DNA of 64,000 nucleotides from an uncultured Candidatus Saccharibacteria bacterium. GTDB lineage: Bacteria; Patescibacteriota; Minisyncoccia; Phycocordibacterales; UBA918. Shown piece by piece: positions 7,313 through 63,247 of the stretch. Location: positions 271,672-335,671 of the forward strand of contig CAYNQD010000001.1 in assembly GCA_964399295.1 (NCBI GenBank), written 5' to 3'. The translations under genes and the position numbers were made by a program. Under the pieces are notes generated by a model. The model saw only the letters and a program-made list of their open reading frames with translations, did not search any database and was not told the DNA's origin. The stretch's first letter is position 1. Each line of letters opens with the position of its first letter.

Positions 7313-7314
7313 AT

Positions 7315-10922: not shown

Positions 10923-11005
10923 AGCTTGATTCTAACAAATAACAGTAAACAGTAAACTGAGTTTTGTGTATTCATAAATAGGCATTTCTGTGGCAAAATA
11001 GTGCT

Positions 11006-11701: not shown

Positions 11702-11763
11702 AGACTAACCATTGACATATATTATATTTGACTTTTATTTTTTCAAAAAAACTGGCGCGGCTA

Positions 11764-13587
11764 TTACTCGACTGTTACAGATTTTGCCAAATTTCTCGGT
11801 TTATCTACATCAAACCCTCGTTTAGTTCCAATGTAATAAGCCATGAGTTGTAGAGGTACAACGGTCAAAAATGGTTCTAGTGACTCTATTGTTTTTGGTA
11901 TATAAAAAACATCGTTTGCTAATGACAAAATTTTCTCATCTCCTTTTGTGGCAATGGCAAATATTGGACCTTTTCTAGCTTTAATCTCTTCGAGGTTAGA
12001 AAACATTTTTTCTGAAACACTATTTTGTGGGACTATTGCCAAAGTCGGAAAATTTTGGCTAATCATCGCAATTGGACCATGTTTCATTTCGCCTGCACCA
12101 TAGCCCTCTGCGTGTATGTAGGATATTTCCTTTAATTTAAGTGCTCCTTCAAGAGCAACAGGGTAGTTATATCGCCGTCCAATAAAAAGAAAATTCTCAT
12201 AATCCTTATATTTTTCTGCCAACTCTTCGAGTTTAGCAGATTGACTCAAAATTGTTTTTATTTTTTCGGGGATATTCTCAAGTTCTTCTAATAACATTTT
12301 GGTTGAGGATTTATCTTTTGATAAATAAATTGCCATCATGGCAAGAACTGTCAATTGTGAGAGAAATGCTTTTGTTGAAGCAACTCCAATTTCAGGACCA
12401 GCGTGATTATAAACGCCGGCGTTTGTTGCTCTCGAAATTGTGGAACCAACTGTATTTACAATACCAAGCGTCATCAATCCATGTTCTTTTGCTTTTTGGA
12501 TGGCGGCCAATGTGTCGGCGGTTTCTCCAGATTGAGAAATTGCGATTACTGCTGTTCCTTTATCAAAAGGCTCATCTCGATAACGAAATTCTGAAGCAAA
12601 GTGCACTTCTGTAGGCAACTTCGCAATTTCTTCAAAAAGATACTCACCGACAAGGCCAGCGTAATAAGAAGTTCCGCAAGCCAATATCAGTATTCTTTTT
12701 ACTTTTTTTAATTCGTCGGCGACCTGTTCCAATCCGCCCAATTTAACAAGATCCTCTTCGCTTTTTATCCTGCCTCGGAAAGCTGACCGGACAACTTCTG
12801 CTCCTTCAAAAATTTCCTTAAGCATGAAATGTGGGAAGTCTCCTTTTTGAGACTGCTCTAAATCCCATTCTAAGCGAACAATTTCAAAGGGCGTTTCTTG
12901 TTTTTCGAGATTAGTAATACTGACATTGTTCTGGCTTATCTTTGCAATTTCTCCATCATTGAGATATATAACATCTTTTGTTTTTCCAACCAAAGCGGAC
13001 GGATCCGAGGCCAAAAAGTTTTCACCACTTCCAACACCAATAACTAACGGGCTAGATAACTTAGTAGCATAAAAAATTTCTGGATTTTTTGCGTCAATTA
13101 TTGCGAGAGCATACGCCCCCTTTATCATTTTTAGAGTATCAAAAAGTGCAGTATCAAAATCTTTGCCGCTTTTCAGGAAATTTTCAATGAGATGTGGCAC
13201 AACTTCGGTATCGGTTTCCGATAGAAAATTGTGGCCTTGATTTTGTAAATACTCTTTTAATTCCTTGTAATTCTCAATAATGCCATTATGGACAACAAAT
13301 ATGCGCCCCAGACAATCACTATGCGGATGAGCGTTAGCCTCGTCGGGACCTCCATGTGTTGCCCAACGCGTGTGACCTATGCCCAGGTGACCATCAAAAT
13401 CACTTCCATTTGCCAAAGATTTTTCTAATATTTTTACTTGCCCAACGCTTTTTCTAACCTCTACTTTGTTGTTTGTGAGTACAGCAATACCCGCAGAGTC
13501 ATATCCACGGTATTCAAGTGCTTTTAGGCCGGTTACTAGAATAGGCTTAGCTTTTTCTTTTCCGATGTATCCAATAATTCCACACAT
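11764..13587 (-). CDS. glmS: glutamine--fructose-6-phosphate aminotransferase (isomerising)
   Basis: N-terminal MCGIIGY with Cys2 nucleophile, GATase-2 domain, two SIS domains, and characteristic C-terminal ...KSVTVE. Confidence 0.95.
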   Translation of the reverse strand: MCGIIGYIGKEKAKPILVTGLKALEYRGYDSAGIAVLTNNKVEVRKSVGQVKILEKSLANGSDFDGHLGIGHTRWATHGGPDEANAHPHSDCLGRIFVVHNGIIENYKELKEYLQNQGHNFLSETDTEVVPHLIENFLKSGKDFDTALFDTLKMIKGAYALAIIDAKNPEIFYATKLSSPLVIGVGSGENFLASDPSALVGKTKDVIYLNDGEIAKISQNNVSITNLEKQETPFEIVRLEWDLEQSQKGDFPHFMLKEIFEGAEVVRSAFRGRIKSEEDLVKLGGLEQVADELKKVKRILILACGTSYYAGLVGEYLFEEIAKLPTEVHFASEFRYRDEPFDKGTAVIAISQSGETADTLAAIQKAKEHGLMTLGIVNTVGSTISRATNAGVYNHAGPEIGVASTKAFLSQLTVLAMMAIYLSKDKSSTKMLLEELENIPEKIKTILSQSAKLEELAEKYKDYENFLFIGRRYNYPVALEGALKLKEISYIHAEGYGAGEMKHGPIAMISQNFPTLAIVPQNSVSEKMFSNLEEIKARKGPIFAIATKGDEKILSLANDVFYIPKTIESLEPFLTVVPLQLMAYYIGTKRGFDVDKPRNLAKSVTVE

Positions 13588-19345: not shown

Positions 19346-22126
19346 CTATAACTCTTGTACATTACCAATAATACTAACTCGAGTGGTGGTGCTATAGGTG
19401 GTGCCGTAAATATTGGTGCAAGATAGCTCAAAGAGCTGAGTGTTGTGCAGAGTGGGAGTTATGACAGTGCCGCCTGAACGATTGGTCACAGGGTCAATAT
19501 CACCGTCAATTGAGGGGTTAAAGGAATCTATGGACCATCCCTGAGGACCGTTGATGACGCATCCAATATCCAGATTTAACATACTCCAGTTGATTTTGGT
19601 GGTTCTGCCGGCTCGGGTAATTTGCGGTATGGCCTGAAATTCAAATTCGGGATTGATGTTTAAATCAGAGCCGGAAGATTCATCACTACCACCAAAAGGA
19701 CTGTTTATGGAATTTGGACTTTCAAGTGTAATGGTAGCAGAGCGCGTTCTCGCTTCGTGAGTGGGACTTACATTGGGATAGGTTTCGGTACCATCCTCTC
19801 TGCGATTGACTTCAGAATAAACAGTAATCGGTACTCCAATCGGGATATTGTTTAAATAGACGGTCTGTATTTGTGGTTGATTACTACCGTTCCTTCTTAC
19901 AGCGGTTGCGGTTCCCCAAGTTCTATACGCTGGTATCGGAATATTATCGGTATGTAATCTAAGCTCATAATCAATAGTTCTATGAGCATTGTTTGGTAAA
20001 GATTCAGAAGACCAGTCGTAGAACGATAATAAAACACCCAGATTATCGTAAGTATGAGTAGCTTCTCTATAGATTAGAGATGAGGTAGAAAATCTTGGAT
20101 AAGAGTCTTCTTGTTCGTACCAATCTAGACGTAAAGTTTGATTTCTGAAGTCAAACACATACGGCTTAGTAGCGTAATAACCGATTGAACTACCTACTCC
20201 AGTGTCGTTTATGGCAAAGGCTTTGAAATGATATGTTGTATTGGGAACTAACCCCGTGAACGTGTTTTTTACTGAGTAAGGTAAAGGTGTACTGGTAGCT
20301 AGAGGCCCAAATAACTTACATCTGCTATTCCAAGCACTTAGATAGGCAGCATCCTCTAAATAGGACGGATTAAAATCTGCTATGCTTGAAGAATCAGTAT
20401 CATAACATATACCATACTGTGATATAGGCTGATTGCCGGCACTGGTGATTCGTATTCCCGGATTAAGTCTTGTCATTTCAGATATTTCTTGAGGGTTTTG
20501 GTATAAGACCGTGGGTATGGTAGTAGTACCTAAAGTATCTTCGTAAGGAGAAATAGCGGTACTAAATGACCCAATAGGAGAATGTCCCCAGCCAATCGTG
20601 TTTACCGCACTGGAGCGAAAATATATAGTGGCATTAGATGGTAGATCGGTTGGGTACAACCACCAATGACTGCTTCCGGGGTTGTAACCGCCACCAGTTA
20701 TTTGACATGTCTTACCGGGAGAGTTCTTGGTGCTAGCTGAGGTTGCACCTGGCGCCAGATAAGGAGCGCCTTCAACTTCTTCTAGGTCTGCCGGGTCAAT
20801 TGACCAACACACACTGACGGCAGTAGTGGGCACCGGATTAACGTCCGCGTTGGTAACAATACCATGACCCCTAAACGAACTATGTGTGAGCATGTCATAA
20901 CCACTGGAAACACTTGATGGAAAAGCTACGGCAGGTTTTTCCAGCGCACTGGATGCAATGTAGGTAACGGGAGTTGAGGTGGCGAAGTTCCCCACCCTGT
21001 CTCTGGTGACGTAGTAAAATTGATAATCAACGTCGCGCTCAATGCCGTTTAAGGTCACGGTGTCAGTACGAGAATTTTGTACCGGTCCGGAAAAGGTTAT
21101 GGGAGCAAAAGTGGTCGTAACTCCTCCTTTTACGATAAAAAGTTGCGCTTGATCCAGTCCGGCATTGGCATCAAATAAAGTTCTGGTGAAAGCTACTGTA
21201 GCCGACAGGCCGTCTGAGCTTACTTGCGTAACTTTAAAATCAGATAAAGTAACAGTGGGAGGGGTTTTGTCTACCAAAAAAGACATAGGGTGCGGCACGC
21301 CTGAAGCCGGAGTGCGGGAAAAAGTCCACATCTTTGCCGGCGCAGAGTATTTGTAAGCTTCGCTGTAGCCATTTAGGTCTTGATGAAAAGTCCAATAATG
21401 AGTACCTTCGGTCAATCCGTCGGGTCCGATGAAGCTGTTGTTGGCATTGAAACTGGCCGGGGCATCATTTAAATAGCTGTAATTTTGGTTGGTAGTATAA
21501 TTTGAAACGTAAATTTTAGTGGTAGCAACGGCGCTGGCGTTGAAAGAAGAGGCTGGAGGATTGGTATGGATAATAAAACTAGGGGTATCGCCAAATACTC
21601 CCCCGGCTGGTGAGATGGAAGAGGCTGATGGTGCGGAAGATGAAATGGTATCTACCTCAACATACCCACGAAAAGTATTTCCATAAAGCGATGACAATGT
21701 GCCATCCACGGAGTTTGGAAAAATACTGGGGGTGGTTATTGGTTTGTAATTAGTAGAACTATCAACCACTACTTGGATACCATTGACAGTGGGATCAAAA
21801 CAAATTCGGTTAGAAGTTTTGCTGCCGGTTTGGATTGATTGAAAGGCTACGTTGTCGTTGTTTATAGAGTTTCGTATATTGACATTCCAAGTACCGATGG
21901 AATTAGCTAGCTGGTTTTTGGTTCCTTTTTCTACCAGCCAAATCTCAATCGCAGCGCGGGTGGCAGGGTCGCAACCAGCTGGAAGATTGCTATCAACATA
22001 CTCAACCTTGCTAGCAAACCAACCAAATGAATCAGTGGCCAAGGCTCCGTTTGGAAAAAGTAAAACTATCAAAGCCAAACCAAGAGACAAAAATACTTTT
22101 GAAAATAAAGAAATCGAATAAGTCAT
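19346..22126 (-). CDS. large secreted multi-domain surface protein (926 aa), paralog of 15690..18533
   Basis: Signal peptide. N-terminal SFGWFASKVEYVDSNLPAGCDPATRAAIEIWLVE and C-terminal FELSCTNIYGTTYSTTTRVSIIGNVQEL align with the 947-aa paralog. Confidence 0.7.
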   Translation of the reverse strand: MTYSISLFSKVFLSLGLALIVLLFPNGALATDSFGWFASKVEYVDSNLPAGCDPATRAAIEIWLVEKGTKNQLANSIGTWNVNIRNSINNDNVAFQSIQTGSKTSNRICFDPTVNGIQVVVDSSTNYKPITTPSIFPNSVDGTLSSLYGNTFRGYVEVDTISSSAPSASSISPAGGVFGDTPSFIIHTNPPASSFNASAVATTKIYVSNYTTNQNYSYLNDAPASFNANNSFIGPDGLTEGTHYWTFHQDLNGYSEAYKYSAPAKMWTFSRTPASGVPHPMSFLVDKTPPTVTLSDFKVTQVSSDGLSATVAFTRTLFDANAGLDQAQLFIVKGGVTTTFAPITFSGPVQNSRTDTVTLNGIERDVDYQFYYVTRDRVGNFATSTPVTYIASSALEKPAVAFPSSVSSGYDMLTHSSFRGHGIVTNADVNPVPTTAVSVCWSIDPADLEEVEGAPYLAPGATSASTKNSPGKTCQITGGGYNPGSSHWWLYPTDLPSNATIYFRSSAVNTIGWGHSPIGSFSTAISPYEDTLGTTTIPTVLYQNPQEISEMTRLNPGIRITSAGNQPISQYGICYDTDSSSIADFNPSYLEDAAYLSAWNSRCKLFGPLATSTPLPYSVKNTFTGLVPNTTYHFKAFAINDTGVGSSIGYYATKPYVFDFRNQTLRLDWYEQEDSYPRFSTSSLIYREATHTYDNLGVLLSFYDWSSESLPNNAHRTIDYELRLHTDNIPIPAYRTWGTATAVRRNGSNQPQIQTVYLNNIPIGVPITVYSEVNRREDGTETYPNVSPTHEARTRSATITLESPNSINSPFGGSDESSGSDLNINPEFEFQAIPQITRAGRTTKINWSMLNLDIGCVINGPQGWSIDSFNPSIDGDIDPVTNRSGGTVITPTLHNTQLFELSCTNIYGTTYSTTTRVSIIGNVQEL

Positions 22127-31748: not shown

Positions 31749-32870
31749 TTATTCTGCCATAATAACCATTTCTGTGGAAGTTGCAAGAGGCAAAGTGAGA
31801 GTAATTTTGCCATTTGTAATATCTCCAGCAAGCTCCTGACTGCTTCTACCCGCCAAATTCTTAAGAAAAACCAGCTTATTTTCTTCCAACATTAACTGTG
31901 GTTGAGCCAGTGTGTTTCTGGTGGTGATGGGTATTATTGCTAAAGTAAAATCATTTTCTTCCCCACCCTCTTCCAAAGTGAGAAACAAGCCTTCTCTAAC
32001 CGCAACTTCAAAATATTGATCGAAAATGAAATTTCCTAGTGAGTAGAAGACTAGTGTTTCGTTTATTTTTTCTATGCCTTGGGTTACGTGTGGATGATGT
32101 CCGATAATCAGATCGGCGCCGGCTTCGGCTAATTTTGTTGCTAAAATTCTTTGTCTGTTTGATTGCTTCAATTCGTATTCGTTACCCCAATGTATGTAGA
32201 CTATTTGCAAGTCACTAGCGACCTTGGCCCAAGATAAAACTTCTTTTATTTTTGTATCCGTAGGTTCACCCGACAAAGTACTAACGCCAATCAAAGCCAA
32301 CTTGGTGCTATTTAAATCAATGAAAGACACTGAGCTGGTGGAAAGATTGATAGGATGACCAAAGCTCACAAAATCATTGTCGGCCAGTACTAATTCAGTA
32401 TTTTTAAGACCGACCATCCCGTAATCCAACGCATGATTATTGGCTAAAGATAAATGCGTAAAACCGGCGGTTTTTAGACCTGGTAAATACTGCTTATTTA
32501 CTGAAAAGTTAAAAGTAAAATTGGGAGTCTTAACATGCTTTGCTGGTACACTGGCTTCAAAATTACCGACTAAAAAAGAATCTTTCGGATTAAACCAGTC
32601 TATATAGGTGTAAGGATAATTTATTCCGTGCAAGGTCATCAAATGCTCAACGTGTCTAGCCAGCATGACATCACCGACAAAGTGGACTTTGGTTTTACTT
32701 AGCTGGCTAAGGTCATGGTCTTCTGGCTGCTTAAGTTGTTTTTGGTGCTTAATTTCTCCGTAACTAAAGGAGGTTTGGGTCAATAATTTTATTGCCGGTA
32801 TTTTTAAATAAACAAACAGCAAACAACTGCCCAAAATGACAGCCAGAGGAAACCACATTCCTCTATTCAT
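31749..32870 (-). CDS. CapA/PgsA-family metallophosphoesterase (poly-gamma-glutamate capsule biosynthesis-type)
   Basis: VHFVGDVMLARHV ... LSLANNHALDYG ... GADLIIGHHPHVTQGIEKINETLVFYSLGNFIFDQ (calcineurin-like phosphoesterase motifs in CapA arrangement). N-terminal TM. Confidence 0.75.
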   Translation of the reverse strand: MNRGMWFPLAVILGSCLLFVYLKIPAIKLLTQTSFSYGEIKHQKQLKQPEDHDLSQLSKTKVHFVGDVMLARHVEHLMTLHGINYPYTYIDWFNPKDSFLVGNFEASVPAKHVKTPNFTFNFSVNKQYLPGLKTAGFTHLSLANNHALDYGMVGLKNTELVLADNDFVSFGHPINLSTSSVSFIDLNSTKLALIGVSTLSGEPTDTKIKEVLSWAKVASDLQIVYIHWGNEYELKQSNRQRILATKLAEAGADLIIGHHPHVTQGIEKINETLVFYSLGNFIFDQYFEVAVREGLFLTLEEGGEENDFTLAIIPITTRNTLAQPQLMLEENKLVFLKNLAGRSSQELAGDITNGKITLTLPLATSTEMVIMAE

Positions 32871-37270: not shown

Positions 37271-37566
37271 GTTTAACGTATTATATAACTTGCGTATTTT
37301 TATTTCTCTAGTTTATACCCACAAGTAAAATTTTTGTTCTAACGGCACAGATTACAGGAGTGAGACTTGGCAGTATTTGAGAAAATTAGAGCGTCCTTAT
37401 TGATAGTGGAATTTAAAAAACGACTACAGACAACATGTTCTAAACCTGGGTGTTGATAACTCCGTATGACTAAGACATCTTCCCACAAAGTATGATTACT
37501 AATTGGTATTATTTTTATGCTTTTTCAGACATAAACCCTTAAATACATAAGATACAACCGTCCTTT

Positions 37567-37620
37567 ATATAAGACATTAAAAGACAAGGCCAGTTGGCCT
37601 TGTCTTTTAATGTCTTATAT
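37567..37620. terminator. long perfect hairpin (25-bp stem, 4-nt loop), terminator of the EPS-like operon
   Basis: atataagacattaaaagacaaggcc-agtt-ggccttgtcttttaatgtcttatat. Located 10 bp downstream of the stop of 37630..38850 and upstream of hsp20. Confidence 0.55.
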
Positions 37621-37629
37621 AATTTAGCT

Positions 37630-38850
37630 CTACTTTTCTGAATTGACCATTTCGTCGTAAGCCTCACCATATAGCTGCACTCTGATATTATTCTTATTTA
37701 AATAATTCAACAAAAAAGTAAAATCATCATTTCTGTATTCAACATCCAAAAGCGGACTTTCCTTAAAATCATGCCAAACCAAAATCAACCATGACTTATC
37801 TTTTACTGCCTGATCAACCGCTTCCACCACCTCTACCAAAGGAGTGGAGGACGATATGGTTATGGCGTTAATATACGAGGAATTTATTTTGGTGGTTGGT
37901 TGTGAAAAACCGTCTATGGTTCGAGCTGATACAAAATACTCAAGAACCTGACTCCTGACCGACAGATTATATCCACCATTAGGATAAGCAAAATGTTCTC
38001 GCCCCTTATAGCCACGCTCTTTGAGATATAGATGTATAGCGGCCAATTGCGTATCCGCGTCCGACGGCAAAAGCCCTATTAAATTATCTTTACCATGACC
38101 GCCAATCTCCCAACCCATCCCAGCCAAAGCGTCTACTTCAGCTTGTGTTAGGTAATTTTCCCGCCCTAAAAACTCCGGAATAATAAAAGCTGTACCGTCA
38201 TAATCATACCGATCCATGACCTTGGCCACTTCCATTACCGAAGCAAAACCGTCATCAAAAGTCAGCGACACTACCGCTTGCGCCTGCGCCGGCTTAGCGT
38301 GGAAAGTAAGGTCATTAAACCACACTCTGGTAGATACTCCGGTTTTTGGTATTACTCTCACCGCCACAGTGTTGATATTTGTCCAATCCGGACTGCCTTC
38401 AGCCAGCTGAAAAACAGATGGTTCAACAGATACATTGATCCACTCTTTCGCTGCCGGATAAGCAAAGTAATTCTTCAAATTAAAGCTAAAATAATTTTCC
38501 AGGCCGCTATCTGAAGCTAAAATCACCATCACTCTTTCGACATCTTCCCAGTTATAAGCTTGCACGGAAAAACTTATAGTACTGCTTGTCAAATCCTTGG
38601 GCTCAAAAGAGGCTTTGGCTCCGTACCAGCCGCCATCAGCGCCGGTTGATATTCTGATGGAATTATCCAGCACAGAGTCCAGACCAAAACCGCCGCCATA
38701 ATAAGCTTCCCAAGCAAAACTTTCATCAACTGCGCTCATTACTTGAGGCTTTTCTTCCGACACTAATTTTGGTGAATCTGCCAACAAATTAAACCACAAA
38801 ATAAAAATAGTGGCTCCTGCTATTGCTAAAAAGATAATTTTATCCATCAT
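37630..38850 (-). CDS. polysaccharide deacetylase (NodB-homology/CE4) with N-terminal TM and non-catalytic N-terminal domain
   Basis: CE4 motifs VVSLTFDDGFASV (TFDDG), His-containing WEIGGHG, and ...FAYPNGGYN. Confidence 0.8.
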   Translation of the reverse strand: MMDKIIFLAIAGATIFILWFNLLADSPKLVSEEKPQVMSAVDESFAWEAYYGGGFGLDSVLDNSIRISTGADGGWYGAKASFEPKDLTSSTISFSVQAYNWEDVERVMVILASDSGLENYFSFNLKNYFAYPAAKEWINVSVEPSVFQLAEGSPDWTNINTVAVRVIPKTGVSTRVWFNDLTFHAKPAQAQAVVSLTFDDGFASVMEVAKVMDRYDYDGTAFIIPEFLGRENYLTQAEVDALAGMGWEIGGHGKDNLIGLLPSDADTQLAAIHLYLKERGYKGREHFAYPNGGYNLSVRSQVLEYFVSARTIDGFSQPTTKINSSYINAITISSSTPLVEVVEAVDQAVKDKSWLILVWHDFKESPLLDVEYRNDDFTFLLNYLNKNNIRVQLYGEAYDEMVNSEK

Positions 38851-38864
38851 AAATATTATTTAAA

Positions 38865-40403
38865 TTACGTTTTAATTAAACCAACTCCCTTTCTCTCCCA
38901 TTTTTGCCAGGTCACTTTTTGCTTCAAGACAAAACTTTTAACTGATTTTACCAAGGCCCAAGCCTCCACGTAGGTAGCCACATAGAAGAGAAGCCAGCCG
39001 ATTGGAGCCAAAATGATAAAAGACACCCGACGGGTGCTTTCTTCATAAAACAAGATTTGTACGACAAACATCAAACCAACCACCAAAACTCCGGTTAAAT
39101 ACGACGAAAAATCAGTATTAACAAAAGAAAATACATACAAAAAGATCAAAAAGGGTATTTCTAACAATAAGTGAAACTCCTGCAATATAGCCAAAGGCAT
39201 AATAATCCAAGTCAAAACTTTATTATGGTGTTTTTTAGTACTAAAAAACAAATGCCGATGTTGGTAAAAAGTCTGAAATCGTCCCAATTTCCAGCGCAAT
39301 CGCTGTTTTTTCAACGAAGCCAAGTCGCTGGCGCCTTCAGTATAGACAACCGCGTCGTTTACATACTCTATCTTCAGGCCAGCATCCTGAATCCGCACTG
39401 TGAGTTCGATATCTTCCGTTATATTATCTTCCCGATAACCGCCCAGTTTTTCAAAAACCTCTCGCCTAAAAGCTCCGGCCGCGCCGCCAATAATATATAT
39501 GCTACCCAGAAGCGCATCCACACGCTTAAAATAAAAAGAAAACAAAAACTCCAGATACTGAACAATCCCAACCGTACTGTCACTGTTGCCAATTTTTACA
39601 TTTCCGACCGCGGCCATGACAGAAGCATCCTTAAAAACCCTAACGAACTCCCCCACCGCCCGACTATCCACCACGCAATCAGCGTCGATTGATAAAATAA
39701 TATCTCCTTTCGCTAAGGAAATCGCTTTATTTAAAGCCCCGCCTTTGCCGGTGTTGTTTTGATATACATATCTAATAGCAATATCTATTTGCTCCTGACC
39801 TTGATATTTACGTAAAAATGCGCGCATTTGTTCATCAGAATCATCAGTTGAACCGTCATTTACAACGATAATTTCAATTTCGCGATACTCACTATCGAGA
39901 ATAGATTTGATTGTATTTATAACACCTACTCCCTCGTTCCAAGCTGGAATCATTATGGAAACTAAAGGTTTATAAACCACATCATCAAAATATAATTTAT
40001 GACGCAATTTCAATCTTATATCATGCCACGGCCCGATGAGCATAAAAAGCGTGTATTTGGTGAGTAAAATCGAAGCAAATATTATAATTATGTTGCGTAT
40101 GAACGATGCTTCAAAAACTACTTTGGTCTCCACAAAAAATGGTGTGACGAGTACACTAATAGTCACGATGTACATCATCAAGTAAACAAAAAACTCACTG
40201 ATTCTTGTATTCTCCAAGTTAAACATTTCTAAAACAAACTTTCTTAGTATATTCGCGTAAATAATTAGCGCCATCGCTCCAAAAACCACTATAAATATTA
40301 GATTTTCCAGGAAGGAAATCACAAAAACCATGAACACGACATATATAACAGAAAATAACGCGGCATTAAACAAAGTGACGTTATTTATAATTATTTTCTT
40401 CAT
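38865..40403 (-). CDS. processive family-2 glycosyltransferase, membrane-embedded (PgaC/IcaA/NodC/cellulose-synthase-like)
   Basis: GT-A motifs VVNDGSTDDS, SIDADCVV (DxD), TEDIELT, and QRLRW (the Q-x-x-R-W of processive beta-glycosyltransferases). Multiple TM helices at both ends. Confidence 0.8.
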   Translation of the reverse strand: MKKIIINNVTLFNAALFSVIYVVFMVFVISFLENLIFIVVFGAMALIIYANILRKFVLEMFNLENTRISEFFVYLMMYIVTISVLVTPFFVETKVVFEASFIRNIIIIFASILLTKYTLFMLIGPWHDIRLKLRHKLYFDDVVYKPLVSIMIPAWNEGVGVINTIKSILDSEYREIEIIVVNDGSTDDSDEQMRAFLRKYQGQEQIDIAIRYVYQNNTGKGGALNKAISLAKGDIILSIDADCVVDSRAVGEFVRVFKDASVMAAVGNVKIGNSDSTVGIVQYLEFLFSFYFKRVDALLGSIYIIGGAAGAFRREVFEKLGGYREDNITEDIELTVRIQDAGLKIEYVNDAVVYTEGASDLASLKKQRLRWKLGRFQTFYQHRHLFFSTKKHHNKVLTWIIMPLAILQEFHLLLEIPFLIFLYVFSFVNTDFSSYLTGVLVVGLMFVVQILFYEESTRRVSFIILAPIGWLLFYVATYVEAWALVKSVKSFVLKQKVTWQKWERKGVGLIKT

Positions 40404-40485
40404 AGGAGTTAAGCACTCTATACCACATTTTATGAAAAAAATCCATTAAGCTTTTCGGAAGCAGCAACTGGATAGTTGTGAAGAT

Positions 40486-41619
40486 TTAGTATTTATTTGT
40501 TGGCAACTTATTTCCGCCTAGATGCCAAATGGATATTTTGTTTATGCCGGCTTGGCGGACGGTTTCAATTTTTCGATTAAGACTTTCGGTGTCTTGAACA
40601 ACCAAAACATCATTACCGTTTCTGGCTATCAACTCTCCAGAAGTTGTGTCTCTGCCCACTTTTGCAAATAGTGGATTTTTAAGAGCCTGCTCATAAGTGA
40701 GAATGTTCATTCTGTTGGCACCGATATCACCCGCGTAGCCATAGCTAGGCAAGCCAATCACAATCTTATTATCATCATTTACCTGCCCACGAGTGTAATT
40801 CACCACCTCGGTTAGCCACCCCAAAGGAGCGACCGGATTGCCAGCTCCGTGGTCAAACTGATAGTCATAAGCCATGATTACGATATAATCAACTGGCAAA
40901 TCATTAAAATCAGTTAATTTAAATTTATACCAGCCTTCTTCGGTTTTGTTGCTAACCGGCGGCAAATCAACCATCAGTTGCTTACCATTTTGATGGAGAG
41001 CTGTTCCTAGACGATTCACAAAATTTAAATACCGCTTTGTAGTTTCAGCCGACCAGCCGCCAAAATCCTCAAAATCAACCTCCACTCCGGTTAGTTTATT
41101 ATCTAGCACAAACTGTACCAGCTGCCTGGTATATTGACTGTTTAGCTCATCTTTTTGCAAAAACTTATCCATATCAACCTGATACGAGGAGGAAATTGTC
41201 ACAAATTGTTGCTTGGATAAATTACGAACTTTCACTATTTCCATTTCCGAATATCCGTTGCAACCATATAAATCCGTGGTCATTAGTTCTAAAATACCAC
41301 CATTTTTTATAATAAAATATTCCGGCTTGAGAACATCAAAACCATAAACCTGAGCCTCGTCCAAAGCTCCACAAGCCGGCGATCCAGGATAAAGCCACGC
41401 CATCATCAGTGAAGAATTGGTGTCGGAGGTCATATTATTTTCAGTTTTTATTTGCTCAAACTCATAGATAATTCTCTGCAATTCACCAACATCAGCATTT
41501 TGCGGCGTTTGATTATAAATCATCAGCCACGACAACAAAGACGCCAGAATCATCGCCAATCCGGAGCTATACAAGGTAATATCTTTATTTTTAATCGTAA
41601 TTTTTCCTATAAGTCCCAT
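40486..41619 (-). CDS. glycoside hydrolase family 18-like protein, TM-anchored
   Basis: GH18 signatures [12 protein letters not shown] (variant of the DGxDxDWE catalytic motif retaining D-x-E) and [13 protein letters not shown] (MxYD motif). Confidence 0.7.
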
Positions 41620-42881
41620 ATTTTTGGGTCTTCTTCACCGTCAATTTTGAAGTAAGCGACGCCTTTCAGATTATATTTCTTGGCCAAATTATGCTTATCC
41701 TTCGCCGCCGACGCTTCCGAATAAGTAGCAAATCTAACCGTAACTTCTTGTTTTGTCAAGTTGGCAAACAACAAAGCTCTGGCGGCATTCTCAAAACCTT
41801 TGGGCGTACCAGCCGGCACCGGTAGAGCTGTTAGTACCCGATACGGGGAAGTATTGGGAAAGTAGGTAAACACGATCTCACCGCTCGTAGTGCGCCCACG
41901 CAGAGTACTGTATTCCTGAGACAACTCTCTAAACCGCGGCACATTTAAAGTAGCAACACGCTGATAGTCGCGATACCAGTCTGGAGCTACCTGCACGTCC
42001 CATACCCGACCGTAAGTGGGAATACCCAAATATACTTTATCAGCTGGAAAATCCCGCACTGCCAATTTGACAACTTTCTCTACCCAATCCTTGTCCGCTA
42101 CCGGCATGTAGGGTTGGCCGGTACGAGCGCTGTTTAGAGTCAAATCCGCCCGCTGTTGGTCGTAGGCCATTATTTCTATACGATCACAATGCTGGCCAAT
42201 TTCACTATAATCATTGGCATATTCAATCACCGCCGGCACGCTTCGCCACCTGTCTTCCGGTGGTGTCCTGGCTTCAATAGCGCAAGTCAGGAGCTTGTTG
42301 CCTAAAGCTTGATTTAGATCCCGCAAAAACTGGGAAAAATAATCTTTAGTGACGGCCAATTTTTGTTCATAATCAATGTTGATACCGTCATAACCATTAT
42401 TCTTGACCAAATTCACAATATCTTTAATATGAGCCTCACGCTGCTGGCTATTGCTCAATACCTGATGGATTTGTTCTCCTTCAAACCAAGCAATGGTGGG
42501 AATTATCTCTATTTTTTCTTTTTTAGCCAAGCTGAAAAAATTTTTCCACTCTCGACTGTTCAAATCCGTTTTGGTGATGATTTGGCCATTTTTATCAATT
42601 TCATAAACAAAAGGATAGATAGTGTCCAACTTTTTGATGTTTTTGGTAGCACTCTCCAAGCCCATTTTGTCCTGCCACCAGGGTATCCAGCCGGCGATTT
42701 TTAGACTGGAGGAACTGGTCTTGGTCTCTGCGGCTAAAGATATTGACGGGAAAAATAAAGAGCCAACCGCCAAAATAACGGCTAAAGCTCCCGCCATCGG
42801 CCGCTGAAAATGGGAAAAGCTAAGGGATTGGTGGGTTTGAGCAGGTAAAGACTTGGAGGCTCCAAAAAATACTGAAAACAT
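41607..42881 (-). CDS. glycoside hydrolase family 18-like protein, secreted or anchored
   Basis: [10 protein letters not shown] (DGxDxDxE-type catalytic motif with D-Y-E retained). (beta/alpha)8-like layout. N-terminal hydrophobic leader. Overlaps the next GH18 gene by 13 bp. Confidence 0.7.
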
Positions 42882-42962: not shown

Positions 42963-44033
42963 CTACCGCACGCACACGTGTGAGATGTCTTGGAAACGGT
43001 GCTGGTATCTGTCTCCAATCTCAGTTGGCCCGGGAATGTATACGTGTCGCTCAATAGAAAAATTGCGGCGATTGTTGTCTAGTCTACCCACCAAAATCAC
43101 TTCCCTATACACATCATCCGCTCGCCAAATATTACTGCCGGAAACCTTATCCACCCACCTGGAAAATCCTCGCGGACACGTCAAATCTGGATTTTCCGGC
43201 TGTGGTGTTGGTTGTTCTACTTCTTCCGACTCCGGCGTTGGCACTTCCACTTCCTCCGGCACACAGTTATTTGATTCATCATATTCATAACCAACCGGAA
43301 TTTCCACCTGATTGCCTTCAATATTTGGACATAAGTCAATTACCGGATCCTCAACCGGCTGACAACTCTCGCCCACCACCTCATATCCAGCTGGAACGAT
43401 AATCTGCAAACCGTCCAAATTTGGACAGACATCAATCAGCTCTTCCGGCTGATAACAATTCCCTTCTTCATCAACCAAATACCCCACCGGCACTTCAGCT
43501 TGCGCGCCGTCAAGGTTGGCACAAACATCAATTACCGGTTCTTCCTCAACCTCAACCAAAGTACCGGTTAATTTAACCTCCGAAATATCAACCCGATCGC
43601 TACCCATGGCCGAATTGGCACTCACCGTTACAAACAAAACCAAATCTTCCACCTCAGCACTTTCCGGTAACAAAACACTCACATTTCCGATCTCCTCCGG
43701 CTGAGAACCAGCCAGGCCGATTATGGTTTCCAAAATATGACTCTCTCCGCCTACTGTAAAACCATAGGAAAAAGTATCCGGCGTTGCTCCACCGTCGAGC
43801 AAGGTAGAATCGTAAAAGAAAGAAAATACTAAATCAGTATGTTTTGAAGCGTCAATATTCCCCGAAGTAAAGGCTGAACCAATATGAACCCTATGCGTAA
43901 ACTGTTCAAATAATGTAGCCGCTGAAGCCTCAGCCGACCACCAAGGAGCCAACATCAATCCCATCATTAAAATAAAAGATAAAAACAAACTCACTCCCGC
44001 CCCAAAAATTGGTTTCAACTTGATGTTAAACAT
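42963..44033 (-). CDS. secreted protein with three tandem Cys-containing ~35-aa repeats and an acidic Pro/Glu-rich linker
   Basis: Signal peptide. Repeats DVCANLDGAQAEVPVGYLVDEEGNCYQPEE / DVCPNLDGLQIIVPAGYEVVGESCQPVE / DLCPNIEGNQVEIPVGYEYDESNNCVPEE. Then PTPESEEVEQPTPQPENP. Confidence 0.5.
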   Translation of the reverse strand: MFNIKLKPIFGAGVSLFLSFILMMGLMLAPWWSAEASAATLFEQFTHRVHIGSAFTSGNIDASKHTDLVFSFFYDSTLLDGGATPDTFSYGFTVGGESHILETIIGLAGSQPEEIGNVSVLLPESAEVEDLVLFVTVSANSAMGSDRVDISEVKLTGTLVEVEEEPVIDVCANLDGAQAEVPVGYLVDEEGNCYQPEELIDVCPNLDGLQIIVPAGYEVVGESCQPVEDPVIDLCPNIEGNQVEIPVGYEYDESNNCVPEEVEVPTPESEEVEQPTPQPENPDLTCPRGFSRWVDKVSGSNIWRADDVYREVILVGRLDNNRRNFSIERHVYIPGPTEIGDRYQHRFQDISHVCVR

Positions 44034-44109
44034 AATTTATAAACTTAAATTACTAAATGTCGTAATCAGAATATTTAAAATTATATGTTTATTCCAGACG
44101 TTTGAATAA

Positions 44110-44634
44110 TTATTTTTGGGGATAGAGATTTTTTTGGTGTTTTATTTTTTGTTCTTTTGTATCCTGTGATTCGTAAACCGACAGAGATTTCCCCAACCAT
44201 TCATCAAAAGCCAGTCCCACACCCACCAAATGCAAGACAGTGCCTCCAGCCAAACTAATAATCAAACTCGCTAAAATAATTTTCCAAGTCGGGTAACGAT
44301 GTCCACGCTTGGTGTAGCGAAGGACGCGAGCGGAAAATATCATAGCCAAAACAATAATGAAAAACCAAAGATAAGGCAAAACCTCAACCAAAAATGTAAA
44401 AATGCTCTCCTGAGTAGCGTCAAGGAATATATATCTATGAAAAGAAACCACAAATAAAGTTACCGCAATCGCAATTGCTCCCACCAAAGTCCCGACCAAC
44501 CACAGCCCCCACACCAAACCCTGCTGCAACAAAAACCGCGAACGAGGCCAAGGACAAACCTTATCCTGCTCAATTCTATCCATGACAATTTTCTTTAGCC
44601 GGTATTCGGAATTTTCCTTGTTCATATCGTTCAT
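44110..44634 (-). CDS. putative anti-sigma factor (membrane protein, 174 aa)
   Basis: 4-bp overlap with the upstream ECF sigma gene. Short cytoplasmic N-terminus, then 3-4 TM helices. Confidence 0.45.
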   Translation of the reverse strand: MNDMNKENSEYRLKKIVMDRIEQDKVCPWPRSRFLLQQGLVWGLWLVGTLVGAIAIAVTLFVVSFHRYIFLDATQESIFTFLVEVLPYLWFFIIVLAMIFSARVLRYTKRGHRYPTWKIILASLIISLAGGTVLHLVGVGLAFDEWLGKSLSVYESQDTKEQKIKHQKNLYPQK

Positions 44635-45215
44635 ATACGTATTGAATCTTGATTTAGTGCATTATAAAGCTGTTTTTTGCCGCGGTAAATCAGCGTTCCC
44701 ACCGAACCAATGGGAATTTTGAGAATATCGGAAATTTCCTCATATTCTAAATGTTCAAAATAACGCAAGGTTAGCACCTCGCGATATTTTTCGTCTATAG
44801 TCAACAACGCTTGATTTAAAGCTCCAATATCAATATTTTTGTCAAAAATAATATCCGGCGCTTCTTCTGTTGAACTGATGAAGTCCAAGACCTCAGCACT
44901 GTCGGCAATCAAATGCCCTTCCGGGCGCACTTTGCGTTTGCGGTACCAACTAATCGCTTCGTTATGAGCAATTCTATATATCCAAGCCGAAAACGACATC
45001 GTCATGTCAAAACTGTTTAGATTTTTGTAGGCTTTAATAAAAATTTCCTGTAAAACATCCAGTTGGTCATCGAGATTTTTTACCCCCAAGCGGGCGATGT
45101 AGCGTTTTAATCTAGCCTCATAGCGCTCCACCACAAAACCAAACGAGCTAGGCTCGCGCAAAGTCATAGCGACAATTTCCCTGTCGGTCAACGCTGAAGA
45201 TTGATCTTGATCCAT
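44631..45215 (-). CDS. RNA polymerase sigma-70 factor, ECF subfamily
   Basis: Region 2 (LQEIFIKAYKNLNSFD...FSAWIYRIAHNEAISWYRKRK) and region 4 (LTLRYFEHLEYEEISDILKIPIGSVGTLIYRGKKQL). Confidence 0.85.
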   Translation of the reverse strand: MDQDQSSALTDREIVAMTLREPSSFGFVVERYEARLKRYIARLGVKNLDDQLDVLQEIFIKAYKNLNSFDMTMSFSAWIYRIAHNEAISWYRKRKVRPEGHLIADSAEVLDFISSTEEAPDIIFDKNIDIGALNQALLTIDEKYREVLTLRYFEHLEYEEISDILKIPIGSVGTLIYRGKKQLYNALNQDSIRI

Positions 45216-45305: not shown

Positions 45306-45986
45306 TTACGCTAACGCTGTGCGTGGGCGCAATGGATTGTTTTTAGCTACAAAAAACAATCCAAAAGCGCCCAGCATGACCAAAAGCAATGTTCCCGGCT
45401 CGGGGACGTTGTTAGTTATTCCATTGCTTATATGGACGTTGTCAACGCCCAAAAAGCTTGAAAGAACCTCATCCCCGACATTCACTGAAAAAAACTTCAG
45501 CGCCATGTCCCCGGCAAGCGGAGCCAAAAAACTCTCCGCATGCCATCCGGTGAGACCAAAGTCTCCAACTGTCGCGACTTGCGACAACACATTGGACCAC
45601 ACTGGTACCCCTCCAATTAAAACTTCTAGAGCAAAGCTCGCGAAGTCATTGAAGGGAAGGTAGTCCCCGGCCTTAAAAAACCAGTCGAAGGAGAGAGTCT
45701 CTCCCATACTGATAAAAAAGGGCGACGACACCAATGTGGTGACATTCTGTCCGGCCTCAATGAGGGCAAAATACTTGCCCTCAGTTGCGAGCATCGTCAC
45801 GGGTGTGTTCACATTAAACGTGTGAAACTCCGTCACGACACTTGCGGCGGTCGGATTTCCAACGACGGCCCAACCGGATAAATCTCCGGTCTCAAACCCG
45901 CCGTTGATAGGAACAGCTTTGGCCGCTGTCGCGGAAAAAATCAACGACAGCGAAATTAGCATCAATGTCAGCGTTGCTTTTTTCAT
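45306..45986 (-). CDS. PEP-CTERM sorting-domain secreted protein
   Basis: Signal peptide. C-terminus NNVPEPGTLLLVMLGAFGLFFVAKNNPLRPR (PEP motif, TM helix, basic tail). N-terminal INGGFETGDLSGW motif. Local GC noticeably higher than surrounding genes. Confidence 0.6.
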   Translation of the reverse strand: MKKATLTLMLISLSLIFSATAAKAVPINGGFETGDLSGWAVVGNPTAASVVTEFHTFNVNTPVTMLATEGKYFALIEAGQNVTTLVSSPFFISMGETLSFDWFFKAGDYLPFNDFASFALEVLIGGVPVWSNVLSQVATVGDFGLTGWHAESFLAPLAGDMALKFFSVNVGDEVLSSFLGVDNVHISNGITNNVPEPGTLLLVMLGAFGLFFVAKNNPLRPRTALA

Positions 45987-63183: not shown

Positions 63184-63247
63184 GTGAATTGAGGATGAAA
63201 AAGAGCGGCGGCCTTTAGGCCGCCGCTCTTTTTCATCCTCAATTCAC
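63184..63247. terminator. bidirectional rho-independent terminator with 30-bp perfect stem, downstream of groEL
   Basis: gtgaattgaggatgaaaaagagcggcggcc-ttta-ggccgccgctctttttcatcctcaattcac. GC-rich inner stem followed by TTTTT on both strands. 5 bp from the groEL stop. Confidence 0.65.

Follow-up and report, generated by a model that had tools for sequence, protein, structure and literature searches.

Four co-directional genes were found on the minus strand of the locus (Table 1), encoding two family GH18 hydrolases (GH18A and GH18B), a processive membrane synthase of family GT2 and a putative deacetylase/esterase of family CE4, with a long hairpin beyond the last of them; positions are those of the window, by which we mean the whole 64,000-nucleotide stretch of DNA that was analysed. 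Both the reading frames and their Pfam domains agree with the preliminary description of this DNA, and all four Pfam matches exceed the gathering cut-offs.

Table 1. Genes and structural features of the cluster and its upstream flank (window coordinates).
Feature	Position	Strand	Product size	Domains and remarks
ECF-type sigma factor gene	44631-45215	minus		Sigma70_r2/r4 domains
4-TM protein gene	44110-44634	minus		
Cys-repeat secreted protein gene	42963-44033	minus	356 aa	
GH18A gene	41607-42881	minus	424 aa	PF00704
GH18B gene	40486-41619	minus	377 aa	PF00704
GT2 processive membrane synthase gene	38865-40403	minus	512 aa	PF00535 + PF13641
CE4 deacetylase/esterase gene	37630-38850	minus	406 aa	PF01522
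Hairpin	37565-37622	.		perfect 27-28 bp palindrome, begins 8 bp past the CE4 stop codon

The reading frames of GH18A and GH18B share 13 bp (41607-41619) and the remaining intergenic gaps in the cluster measure 82 bp and 14 bp: judged purely by this spacing, GH18A-GH18B-GT2-CE4 would be co-transcribed, and since the gaps leave no room for it, a PgaD/IcaD gene is absent from the operon. GH18A, GH18B and CE4 each carry one N-terminal hydrophobic anchor. The three genes at 42963-45215 lie on the same strand with gaps of 76-81 bp and a convincing terminator before GH18A is absent; whether they are upstream members of the same transcription unit is uncertain. Their synteny with the cluster is not kept in other genomes, in which its upstream flank holds LexA-like S24 and CAP genes instead. 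The window also contains glmS, which indicates that the hexosamine pathway towards UDP-GlcNAc is present. As for the 3' end, a terminator with a 25-bp stem had been proposed. The hairpin proved to be stronger than this (-44.6 kcal/mol, z = -10.7, with 0/200 shuffles folding as well) and is unique in the window, but it does not look like a canonical intrinsic terminator: no U-tract follows it on the transcribed (minus) strand, where the tail reads AUAUAAAGGA, and the terminator scan flagged it in the plus-strand reading only. Lacking this minus-strand U-tract, it is a plausible terminator or stabiliser, and probably forms the 3' end of the cluster transcript or stabilises it. A similar perfect hairpin of 31 bp lies at another gene end (63184-63247), which suggests that the genome uses such structures.

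The synthase matches PF00535 (E 1.1e-30) and PF13641 (E 1.8e-30), and its motifs NDGSTD, DADC, TED and QRLRW align with those of the reference enzymes. The QRLRW motif of processive synthases, already noted in the preliminary description, was confirmed at residues 367-371, with Q367, R368, R370 and W371 invariant in 23 relatives. Hydrophobic segments at residues 4-40, 73-123 and 396-478 (roughly four N-terminal and three to four C-terminal) flank the catalytic domain of this 'long form' with extra N-terminal TM helices; by its motifs and flanking TM segments, the protein belongs with the processive membrane synthases of the BcsA, PgaC, NodC, HAS and Chs type. Its best NCBIfam profile was TIGR03937 (PgaC_IcaA; 173.8 bits, E 5.4e-51, the alignment spanning profile positions 43-402 of 407), ahead of NodC (TIGR04242; 89.2 bits, 2.6e-25) and CelA (63 bits), and no non-GlcNAc synthase was the best match. 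The designation PgaC/IcaA-like therefore holds for the best profile and for TED and QRLRW, but does not extend to orthology, which was rejected on the score (equivalog cut-off 422.3 bits), on identities of 23% (E. coli PgaC) and 24% (an IcaA homologue on a staphylococcal plasmid, annotated pgaC and lying beside icaB), and on its separate clade in a neighbour-joining tree. Placement in the NodC/chitin synthase/HAS lineage was rejected as well: TED replaces G(E/D)DR ('NITEDIELT' aligns with 'FGEDRHLT' of NodC and 'FGDDRCLT' of HasA), the second motif is QRLRW, and the NodC score compares with an equivalog cut-off of 550 bits. GT2 is about equally distant from PgaC, IcaA, NodC and HasA (21-24% identity), so that its assignment to a GlcNAc donor stays putative. 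PDB searches by sequence and by profile returned no chain of a chitin synthase or HAS; of the membrane-embedded processive synthases (BcsA, hyaluronan or chitin synthase type), BcsA alone was hit. There are more than 1000 relatives, and those bearing a name are Patescibacteria. On sequence grounds, GT2 is best regarded as a family of its own with motifs of the PgaC/IcaA/BcsA type, not of the NodC/HAS type.

The protein first described as a TM-anchored NodB/CE4 deacetylase does possess the anchor (residues 5-23) and the CE4 domain (~193-405; PF01522, E 1.7e-10, 41.4 bits against a gathering cut-off of 23.1 bits), separated by a CBM-like beta-sandwich (~38-185). The residues D199, D200, H252, R310 and H360 show no variation, for D199, D200 and H360 across 33 sequences, and both the Asp of motif 1 (TFDD) and the His of motif 5, the catalytic residues, are kept. 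Motif 2 ('GGHGKDN') keeps the first His and lacks the second metal His when compared with the canonical H-[ST]-x-x-H, whilst motif 3 ('FAYPNGGY') has no Arg of R-x-P-Y and resembles 'FVWPYGEAN' of E. coli PgaB; R310 is an alternative invariant Arg. The canonical Asp-His-His metal triad together with the motif-3 Arg was thus not found in the window CE4; the CE4 domains of the fusion proteins described below carry the canonical 'HTFKHP' and 'FRPPY'. In Foldseek comparisons of the structural model (pLDDT 88.4), the CE4 domain resembles PdaC, PgdA, BC0361, BA0330 and acetylxylan esterases and the N-terminal domain matches CBM11/CBM30, with the best full-length match being the HFTV1 turret protein (8qpg_TA). 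The protein also structurally resembles phage esterases. Given this resemblance and the absence of the second metal His and the motif-3 Arg, N-deacetylation can only be inferred. All CE4 orthologues (n=36) lie on contigs of the closest GT2 sub-clade.

Both GH18 proteins were assigned to the family through PF00704 (GH18A: E 2.4e-26, 93.6 bits; GH18B: E 2.8e-17, 63.8 bits; gathering cut-off 29.6 bits) and through their motifs, with the fold being checked on a model of GH18B. As previously stated, they retain the catalytic residues: D-x-E and M-x-Y-D are present in both and invariant in 34 GH18B relatives and in the GH18 domains of the fusion proteins, and no loss of the catalytic acid was seen. 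The two paralogues are only 24% identical. GH18A keeps 'INIDYE' and 'MAYD', has a hydrophobic segment at residues 32-50, and has YdhD (3cz8, 1.6e-17), 4q6t, 5jh8 and YaaH as its nearest solved relatives; orthologues occupy the same position in loci L087 (68% identity) and L098 (54%), and lie nearby on the opposite strand in loci L011 and L018. GH18A would thus be a secreted or membrane-anchored hydrolase and an optional first gene, or add-on, of the cluster. All 34 relatives share with GH18B the residues E180, D182, E184, M249, Y251, D252 and W365 as well as the Cys pair C83/C120, and the AlphaFold model of GH18B (pLDDT 92.8) is closest in Foldseek to 5jh8 (8e-19) and SleL (4s3k/4s3j), the top PDB matches all being GH18. 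GH18B is a predicted N-terminally anchored hydrolase and appears to be the conserved cognate partner of the synthase. A Pfam search of the cluster proteins found no LysM, SH3 or PG_binding domains. Because GH18 catalysis depends on a 2-acetamido group in subsite -1, a GlcNAc-containing substrate is favoured.

The preliminary description had regarded the arrangement as an unusual one; it did not prove to be an isolated case when synteny was checked in independent genomes. The order GH18B-GT2-CE4 recurs in several Patescibacteria genomes, and the full order GH18A-GH18B-GT2-CE4 in two; the former is kept at 55-72% GT2 identity and in differing flanking contexts. A GH18B orthologue lies within 4.5 kb of GT2 in 14/53 species-representative loci and directly adjoins it in L085, L087, L096, L097 and L098, with this adjacency being found across Patescibacteria and also in the cultured Ktedonospora formicarum and Ktedonobacteria bacterium brp13. 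In L086, a close relative, GT2-CE4 is without an adjacent GH18, which shows that the hydrolase need not be encoded in cis. Coupling is supported most strongly by single-polypeptide GH18-CE4-GT2 fusions of 1105-1229 aa, found in Bacillus sp. N5-665, Novosphingobium and Sphingomonas (Sphingomonadales), Heliobacteriaceae, Blastocatellia (Acidobacteriota) and WWE3: because unrelated bacteria carry all three activities on a single fused protein, their coupling is real. The topology of these fusions (TM1, GH18 and CE4, TM2, GT2, C-terminal TMs) implies that hydrolase and esterase are located on the outer face, tethered to the synthase. The window GT2 shares about 27-30% identity with the fusion/MatB-like clade. 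Sister GT2 sub-clades have conserved adjacent partners of their own, GH26-like in Deinococcus and Chloroflexia and of unannotated families elsewhere; these match a rule of synthase plus cognate hydrolase, and also mean that the product may differ in the wider family. Gene content and order accordingly describe a conserved and widespread module as predicted from sequence, with GH18B as the invariant partner, GH18A as optional and CE4 confined to the closest GT2 sub-clade.

We propose, with a probability of roughly 0.6, that in this monoderm, tiny-genome bacterium of the Patescibacteria (CPR) the four genes constitute a self-contained system of the synthase-dependent kind, whose product would be a polymer of the poly-beta-GlcNAc type that is secreted or located on the cell surface. 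In this system GT2, judged by its motifs and topology, would polymerise UDP-HexNAc, most likely UDP-GlcNAc, at its cytoplasmic domain and would provide the chain channel through its own ~8 TM helices without a partner of the PgaD/IcaD type. Outside the membrane, the anchored CE4 may bind the chain through its CBM-like domain and remove some acetyl groups (N- or O-linked), and membrane-anchored GH18B would cut the chain at an N-acetylated residue by substrate-assisted catalysis. Conserved synteny, the fusions and intact catalytic residues point to GH18B as the cognate hydrolase that processes or releases the polymer, a task that falls elsewhere to BcsZ, the PgaB GH153 domain or PelA, whilst GH18A may be a second, optional hydrolase with another cleavage pattern or one acting on the wall. 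The make-and-trim GlcNAc module of the preliminary description is hence supported in its domain content and its make-modify-trim logic; the polymer and its linkage remain proposals. The polymer is likely, though this is speculation, to serve in adhesion or as matrix for an episymbiotic cell.

Several other readings of the same genes have to be weighed. It is rather unlikely that the proteins remodel the wall, with the GH18s acting as peptidoglycan N-acetylglucosaminidases (SleL/YdhD-like) and CE4 as a peptidoglycan deacetylase (PgdA/PdaC-like) that modify the sacculus, for example for passage or attachment of the GT2 product, and leave the polymer itself unprocessed. In its favour, YdhD, SleL and YaaH are the solved proteins nearest to both GH18s, peptidoglycan is the substrate of the characterised members of this subfamily, PdaC, PgdA, BC0361 and BA0330 can be superposed on the CE4 domain, and GH18A orthologues are sometimes found apart from the synthase on the opposite strand; however, such a role explains neither why GH18B tracks with GT2 across phyla nor why GH18 and CE4 are fused to a synthase with a TM tether at the polymer exit site. 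The cluster proteins are, moreover, devoid of wall-binding modules of the LysM, SH3 and PG_binding type, SleL and YaaH carrying LysM, and the CBM11/30-like module of CE4 is typical of polysaccharide-active enzymes. Less probable again is a heteropolymer or other HexNAc polymer (compare hyaluronan, heparosan and the ManNAc-based Pss EPS of Listeria, reportedly made by a PgaC/BcsA-like GT2), which the GH18s would cleave solely at GlcNAc positions unless their function is altered. The equidistance of GT2 from PgaC, IcaA, NodC and HasA favours this, as does the product plasticity implied by sister sub-clades with GH26-like hydrolases that need no acetamido group. Against it, no UDP-sugar dehydrogenase, epimerase or second glycosyltransferase was found in or beside the cluster, in the window or in relatives, CPR genomes have few nucleotide-sugar pathways, and the pairing of GH18 with CE4 points to GlcNAc.

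Formally, GT2 plus CE4 also follows the logic of NodC plus NodB, and the NodC profile is matched at 2.6e-25, so that short chito-oligosaccharides deacetylated into a diffusible, Nod-factor-like signal come into question. We consider this very improbable: GT2 has neither the G(E/D)DR nor the QQLRW of NodC/HasA and falls far below the NodC cut-off, its ~8 TM segments suit a synthase that translocates its product, genes for a NodA-like acyltransferase or a NodIJ transporter were not found nearby, and, in contrast to the cytoplasmic NodB, CE4 has a TM anchor and an extracytoplasmic CBM. Least probable of all is that nutritional chitinases happen to lie beside an unrelated EPS synthase. Surveys of CPR genomes do list GH18 as plain chitin degradation (PMC9868632), yet the gene order persists at the divergence and in the varied flanks given above, the pair is kept across phyla, covalent fusions exist and speak strongly against this reading, and the proteins bear membrane anchors in place of free secretion signals and chitin-binding modules.

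Returning to the proposed poly-beta-GlcNAc system, the joint claim that the polymer is a GlcNAc homopolymer and that GH18B acts upon it is slightly better than an even bet. Given such a homopolymer, we place a beta-1,6 linkage (PNAG-like) a little below even odds and a beta-1,4 linkage (chitin/chitosan-like) somewhat lower. To our knowledge, all characterised GH18 enzymes in CAZy cleave after beta-1,4-linked GlcNAc. Thus, the precedent of GT2 leads to beta-1,6 and that of GH18 to beta-1,4, and the answer would widen the specificity known for one of the major CAZy families: if GH18B does cleave a GlcNAc homopolymer, either linkage implies a new enzyme specificity. Were the product PNAG, GH18B would be the first GH18 with beta-1,6-GlcNAc specificity, replacing the PgaB GH153 domain or dispersin B. 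Alternatively, though on balance doubtful, the PgaC-like GT2 of CPR and Ktedonobacteria could make a true beta-1,4 chitin-like chain that CE4 converts to chitosan and the GH18s remodel; bacteria would then possess their own version of the cell-wall triad of fungi (chitin synthase, chitin deacetylase and chitinase), derived from the PgaC/BcsA-type and not the NodC/Chs branch. Much of biofilm biology centres on synthase-dependent EPS systems (cellulose, PNAG, Pel, alginate), all of which possess a dedicated hydrolase or lyase; such enzymes are under study as anti-biofilm agents, and a GH18 partner has not previously been described. The module is also among the few conserved surface-polymer systems identifiable in Patescibacteria, in which host-cell attachment is poorly understood and reduced metabolism leaves UDP-GlcNAc among few available building blocks. 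As cultured Ktedonobacteria possess homologous GT2-GH18B pairs and the fusion is found in Bacillus and Sphingomonas, laboratory tests of the question are directly within reach.

Amongst known systems, no solved proteins come closer to GH18A and GH18B in sequence and fold than SleL, YaaH and YdhD (CFLE-type, spore cortex), which share the D-x-E machinery, but the window GH18s are without LysM, membrane-anchored and genetically linked to a polysaccharide synthase; we know of no spore formation in Patescibacteria. The fungal chitin synthase/deacetylase/GH18 triad and NodC-NodB likewise combine a processive GT2, CE4 and GH18 on beta-1,4-GlcNAc chains; here, however, the genes form one bacterial operon and GT2, without the combination of G(E/D)DR and Q(Q/R)xRW, clusters with PgaC/BcsA-style enzymes. 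Cellulose operons also encode a dedicated endo-hydrolase for their own product, and its GH family is swappable between lineages (GH5 in clostridial CcsA-CcsZ, bioRxiv 10.1101/837344; GH8 in BcsA-BcsZ), whereas the window cluster has another presumed product, no PilZ or BcsB partner and a substrate-assisted GH18 hydrolase. With Pga/Ica it has in common the sequence of GT2 synthesis, partial de-N-acetylation by CE4 and (in Pga) attack on the polymer by a glycoside hydrolase, as well as TED, QRLRW and the best curated profile of its GT2; it differs in that PgaA and IcaC are absent from the cluster and in that the hydrolase is a GH18 and not GH153 (PgaB C-domain) or GH20 (dispersin B) (PMC5933820). 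GH18 had been called unusual for PNAG systems, and our literature search indeed found no characterised PNAG system using one. By architecture, the nearest experimentally characterised relative is Streptomyces MatB, an extracellular CE4 fused to a PgaC-like GT2 (PMC5972031, PMC4391728), whose product was identified as PNAG via mAb F598 and dispersin B (PMC5972031). MatAB lacks a GH18, MatA being a small membrane protein without known domains, and the window CE4 differs in being encoded by a separate gene and belonging to a divergent CE4 subclass with a CBM. Both systems are nevertheless monoderm, synthase-dependent and free of an outer-membrane porin, and both couple an extracytoplasmic CE4 to a multi-TM GT2: the topology of MatAB is that of the GH18-CE4-GT2 fusions, to whose CE4 and GT2 domains a MatB-like fusion in Actinoplanes is 38-44% identical.

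The four minus-strand genes of the cluster lie exactly where the preliminary description had placed them, as reproduced by the ORF listing, and their domain classes were confirmed by Pfam, with two GH18 domains, one GT2 domain and one CE4 domain each exceeding the gathering score. There is a 13-bp overlap between GH18A and GH18B, and the remaining intergenic gaps are 82 bp and 14 bp. The named closest relatives of all four proteins are from Patescibacteria (CPR), and it is from these names that the window is taken to come from a CPR bacterium. The same locus also turns up in metagenomes, on contigs as long as 594 kb. The terminator with a 25-bp stem described for this operon held up as a hairpin but not in its canonical form: the element at 37565-37622 is a perfect palindrome of 27-28 bp (-44.6 kcal/mol, z = -10.7; unique in the window), and since the transcribed strand carries no U-tract, a role as a non-canonical terminator is only plausible. 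A second perfect hairpin (63184-63247; 31-nt arms, 2-nt loop) lies between two minus-strand genes and closes one of them, and together the two hairpins suggest that gene ends in the source genome carry perfect palindromes of unusual length in place of classical terminators. A promoter scan of the window gave 29 sites against 21.7 +/- 5.6 in shuffles, which is no enrichment, and no convincing site upstream of GH18A. Directly upstream of GH18A lies a gene (42963-44033, minus strand) for a secreted protein of 356 aa with no Pfam match and with three tandem Cys-containing repeats ('CxNLDGxQxxVPxGY...C'); this protein is restricted to contigs of the same species and is missing from the other genomes that carry the cluster.

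Coordinates of the cluster genes and of related features in other genomes (L-numbers denote loci carrying relatives of the window GT2 or of other cluster genes; clusters 1, 2 and 4 are protein families adjoining GT2 relatives)
Feature	Position	Strand	Length	Basis or remark
GH18A	41607-42881	minus	424 aa	ORF listing and Pfam GH18
GH18B	40486-41619	minus	377 aa	ORF listing and Pfam GH18
GT2	38865-40403	minus	512 aa	ORF listing and Pfam GT2
CE4	37630-38850	minus	406 aa	ORF listing and Pfam CE4
S24 and DinB genes around cluster	L087:5075-5500 and 10837-12084
S24 and DinB genes around cluster	L097:5238-5675 and 9894-11138
S24 and DinB genes around cluster	L098:990-1430 and 6697-7950
Fusion ORFs	L089:4802-8158; L064:7820-11134; L065:628-4314; L066:7613-11143
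Fusion ORFs	L062:7754-11179; L063 about 8039-11089; L067:7712-11134
Cluster 1	L052:11242-12447 and 20 other loci			adjoins GT2; clan-A-like 'NPFPEAN...GLQGFPW' motifs
Cluster 4	L012:11378-12898 and 7 other loci			adjoins GT2; 'DVEPY...MAYRN' motifs
Cluster 2	L053:1193-1837			adjoins GT2

On the sequence evidence, the coupling of GH18, CE4 and GT2 is real, with three independent lines converging: conserved gene order, a wider census and Rosetta-stone fusions. The synteny that had been suggested as a check was indeed present in other genomes: all four genes occur in the same order in L087 and L098 (72% and 67% GT2 identity to the window GT2), and GH18B-GT2-CE4 occurs in L096 (58%) and L097 (55%). 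Further loci show GH18B-GT2 followed by the contig end (L085), the order GT2-CE4-GH18B (L005) or GT2-CE4 alone (L086). The flanking genes differ, with an ECF sigma factor upstream in the window and LexA-like S24 and DinB genes in relatives, and therefore the cluster moves as a unit. In several relatives, a gene for a LexA-like S24 peptidase lies upstream and one for a DinB/IMS translesion polymerase downstream of the GH18-GT2-CE4 cluster, so that an SOS-type gene pair appears to enclose the polysaccharide cluster; this bracketing arrangement is absent from the window. In the census of 53 species-representative loci (GT2 identity of at least 38%), GH18B was found within 4.5 kb of GT2 in 14 loci, including those of the cultured Ktedonospora formicarum and Ktedonobacteria bacterium brp13. 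The 36 CE4 orthologues are confined to the closest "long-form" GT2 sub-clade. Other GT2 sub-clades have conserved neighbours of their own: an unannotated protein of 500 aa (8 loci), a pair of 215 aa and 400 aa (21 loci) and, in Deinococcus and one Chloroflexia genome, a GH26-like hydrolase. Such a pattern would be expected were every synthase lineage to retain a cognate processing enzyme.

The conserved parts of three such neighbour families of Patescibacteria GT2s (clusters 1, 2 and 4) gave no Pfam match, and these are probably undescribed glycoside hydrolase families. Cluster 1, the 400-aa partner of the GT2 clade at 39-44% identity, has no match over its whole length; cluster 4, a protein of about 500 aa downstream of GT2 in the place of GH18B (8 loci), has a C-terminal domain with no match. 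Its 'QYDVEPY...MAYRN' motifs had raised the idea of a cryptic GH18, which was unsupported by hhalign against the GH18B family (6.8% probability, E 0.0054).

The third line comes from seven genomes in which GH18, CE4 and GT2 are encoded by a single reading frame (1105-1229 aa): those of Bacillus sp. N5-665, Novosphingobium and two Sphingomonas, MAGs from Heliobacteriaceae and from Blastocatellia, and one WWE3 genome. The GH18 domain, which retains the D-x-E motif, goes unmentioned in the annotated records of these fusions. GH18 and CE4 follow one TM segment and are separated from GT2 by another; hydrolase and esterase would therefore be held outside the cell, beside the channel.

Comparison of the GT2 with profiles of known synthases, as had been proposed, placed PgaC_IcaA as the top NCBIfam match with an end-to-end alignment (173.8 bits, though below the curated cut-off of 422.3), followed by weaker matches to NodC (89 bits) and CelA (63 bits). 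The family was also aligned with PgaC and BcsA from E. coli, NodC from S. meliloti, a Bacillus HasA and an IcaA reference, the latter being a staphylococcal plasmid-borne homologue annotated as pgaC and adjoining icaB. In this alignment the motifs NDGSTD, DADC, TED and QRLRW (the last, already described, lies at residues 367-371) are of PgaC/IcaA/BcsA style, and the G(E/D)DR plus QQLRW combination of NodC/HasA is not present in the window GT2. Identity is low throughout (23% to PgaC, 24% to IcaA, 21% to NodC, 24% to HasA and 18% to BcsA), and in a rough NJ tree the sister group of the family is a clade of GT2s from Deinococcus and from the fusion proteins, with PgaC/IcaA branching next and then NodC/HasA. 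Hydrophobic segments flank the catalytic domain on either side and the operon leaves no room for a PgaD/IcaD-like gene. Given these scores, motifs, identities and segments, the GT2 is a synthase of its own family, processive and probably self-sufficient, for which "PgaC-like" is a label of motifs and not of orthology. Sequence and profile searches of the PDB matched no PgaC, NodC, chitin synthase or HAS structure, BcsA being the sole membrane-embedded processive synthase of that class to be matched; known structures thus gave no basis for deducing the acceptor or the linkage. The Pfam Chitin_synth_2 matches of many relatives and of the fusions were rejected as evidence for a chitin synthase, as they are limited to some 90 residues at the DxD region.

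Both GH18 proteins retain the catalytic Asp-x-Glu and the M-x-Y-D motif, in agreement with the intact catalytic residues claimed for them, and are predicted enzymes rather than lectin-like pseudo-enzymes. They share just 24% identity and have the same nearest GH18 group (YdhD, SleL, YaaH, 5jh8 and 4q6t). Across 34 diverse GH18B relatives, E180, D182, E184, M249, Y251, D252, W365 and a Cys pair are invariant, and the confident GH18B model (pLDDT 92.8) superposes on GH18 enzymes. The CE4 combines a TM anchor, a CBM11/30-like beta-sandwich and the CE4 domain (model pLDDT 88.4); D199, D200, H252, R310 and H360 are invariant, and it lacks the second motif-2 His and the motif-3 Arg, the CE4 domains of the fusions being canonical. 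It is very probably active as the predicted N- or O-deacetylase. A sequence search against the PDB gave no match, so that its placement came solely from predicted structure: over its full length, the CBM and CE4 model is best matched by the head-turret protein of Haloferax tailed virus 1 (8qpg_TA, E 2e-18, TM 0.66), and BFVD matches are phage "esterase" and "polysaccharide deacetylase" proteins, including those of Arthrobacter phage Qui and Bacillus phage G (gp673). The closest full-length structures are virion-associated deacetylases/esterases of an archaeal virus and phages, and the modelled CE4 is of a subclass that would be common to cellular EPS operons and virions.

PEP-CTERM/exosortase systems are typical of diderm EPS producers, and it is odd that a putative CPR genome should encode, within a few kb of the synthase operon, a secreted 226-aa protein with a C-terminal PEP-CTERM sorting motif (45306-45986, minus strand; PF07589, E 7.9e-06). 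A tripartite-style efflux pair, an HlyD-type membrane-fusion protein with a full-length AcrB-type RND pump (5732-10407, plus strand; PF00873, E 1e-177), would likewise not be expected of a monoderm CPR bacterium. A CapA-like PGA_cap protein (31749-32870, minus strand; PF09587, E 2e-52), encoded about 5 kb downstream of the cluster, may represent a second surface-polymer function, because this family is linked to poly-gamma-glutamate capsule synthesis. Two large minus-strand ORFs (15690-18533, 947 aa; 19346-22126, 926 aa) gave no hit in Pfam with a threshold of E <= 1e-5.

Taken together, GT2 would polymerise and export a GlcNAc-containing chain from UDP-GlcNAc (glmS is present in the window), CE4 would partly deacetylate it outside the cell, membrane-tethered GH18B would cleave it and so control chain length or release, and GH18A may contribute a second specificity. 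The GH18 mechanism requires an N-acetyl group at subsite -1 and, to our knowledge, all characterised GH18 activities are on beta-1,4-linked GlcNAc; GT2 motifs and the precedent of Streptomyces MatB would favour a beta-1,6 linkage. If a GlcNAc homopolymer is cleaved by GH18B, this implies either a GH18 active on beta-1,6 linkages or a chitin/chitosan synthase that belongs to the PgaC-type branch, which would be new either way; that the GT2 product is not a homopolymer seems to us quite unlikely. Remodelling of peptidoglycan by the GH18s and CE4 is a slightly stronger contender, yet still an unlikely one, as it is opposed by the fusions and the conserved synteny. The same two observations speak against chance adjacency of the genes, the least probable explanation of all, and a Nod-factor-like signal is hardly more credible in view of motifs and topology. 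The interpretation in the preliminary description is partly supported and can be sharpened: the genes, domains and coupling stand, and the cluster would belong to a widespread, so far uncharacterised family of modules for synthase-dependent production of GlcNAc polymers, with GH18 as the cognate hydrolase. The whole of this reading is a computational prediction. Such a family would surprise EPS and CAZy specialists, bears on CPR surface biology and is testable in cultured carriers.

The literature that was searched describes no GT2-GH18 module, no PNAG-active GH18 and no poly-GlcNAc synthesis in CPR bacteria, though such accounts may exist outside it. A survey that covered PNAG operons systematically lists fusions of deacetylase and GT as well as hydrolase domains, with no GH18 among them (PMC7112194), and the PgaB hydrolase domain is structurally near GH18 and GH20, yet in a new family (PMC5933820). 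Streptomyces MatA, encoded upstream of MatB, is described as a small membrane protein with no known domains, in which a frameshift at Leu165 leads to a stop at residue 176, the mutation lying 216 bp upstream of matB (PMC5972031, PMC4391728); the idea that MatA is a diverged GH18, tying the fusions to a proven PNAG system, was dropped on this description and on a MatB-like locus in Actinoplanes, where a kinase/GGDEF gene, and none like MatA or GH18, lies upstream. The authors of the MatB study met a like ambiguity, with a PgaC-like GT2 and a CE4 related to enzymes for beta-1,4 substrates, and the product was identified as PNAG by a PNAG-specific antibody and by dispersin B and periodate sensitivity (PMC5972031). 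MatB has the CE4-TM-GT2 portion of the fusion architecture, and the fusions, which in essence add a hydrolase to MatB, resemble an as yet uncharacterised "all-in-one" machine for polysaccharide.
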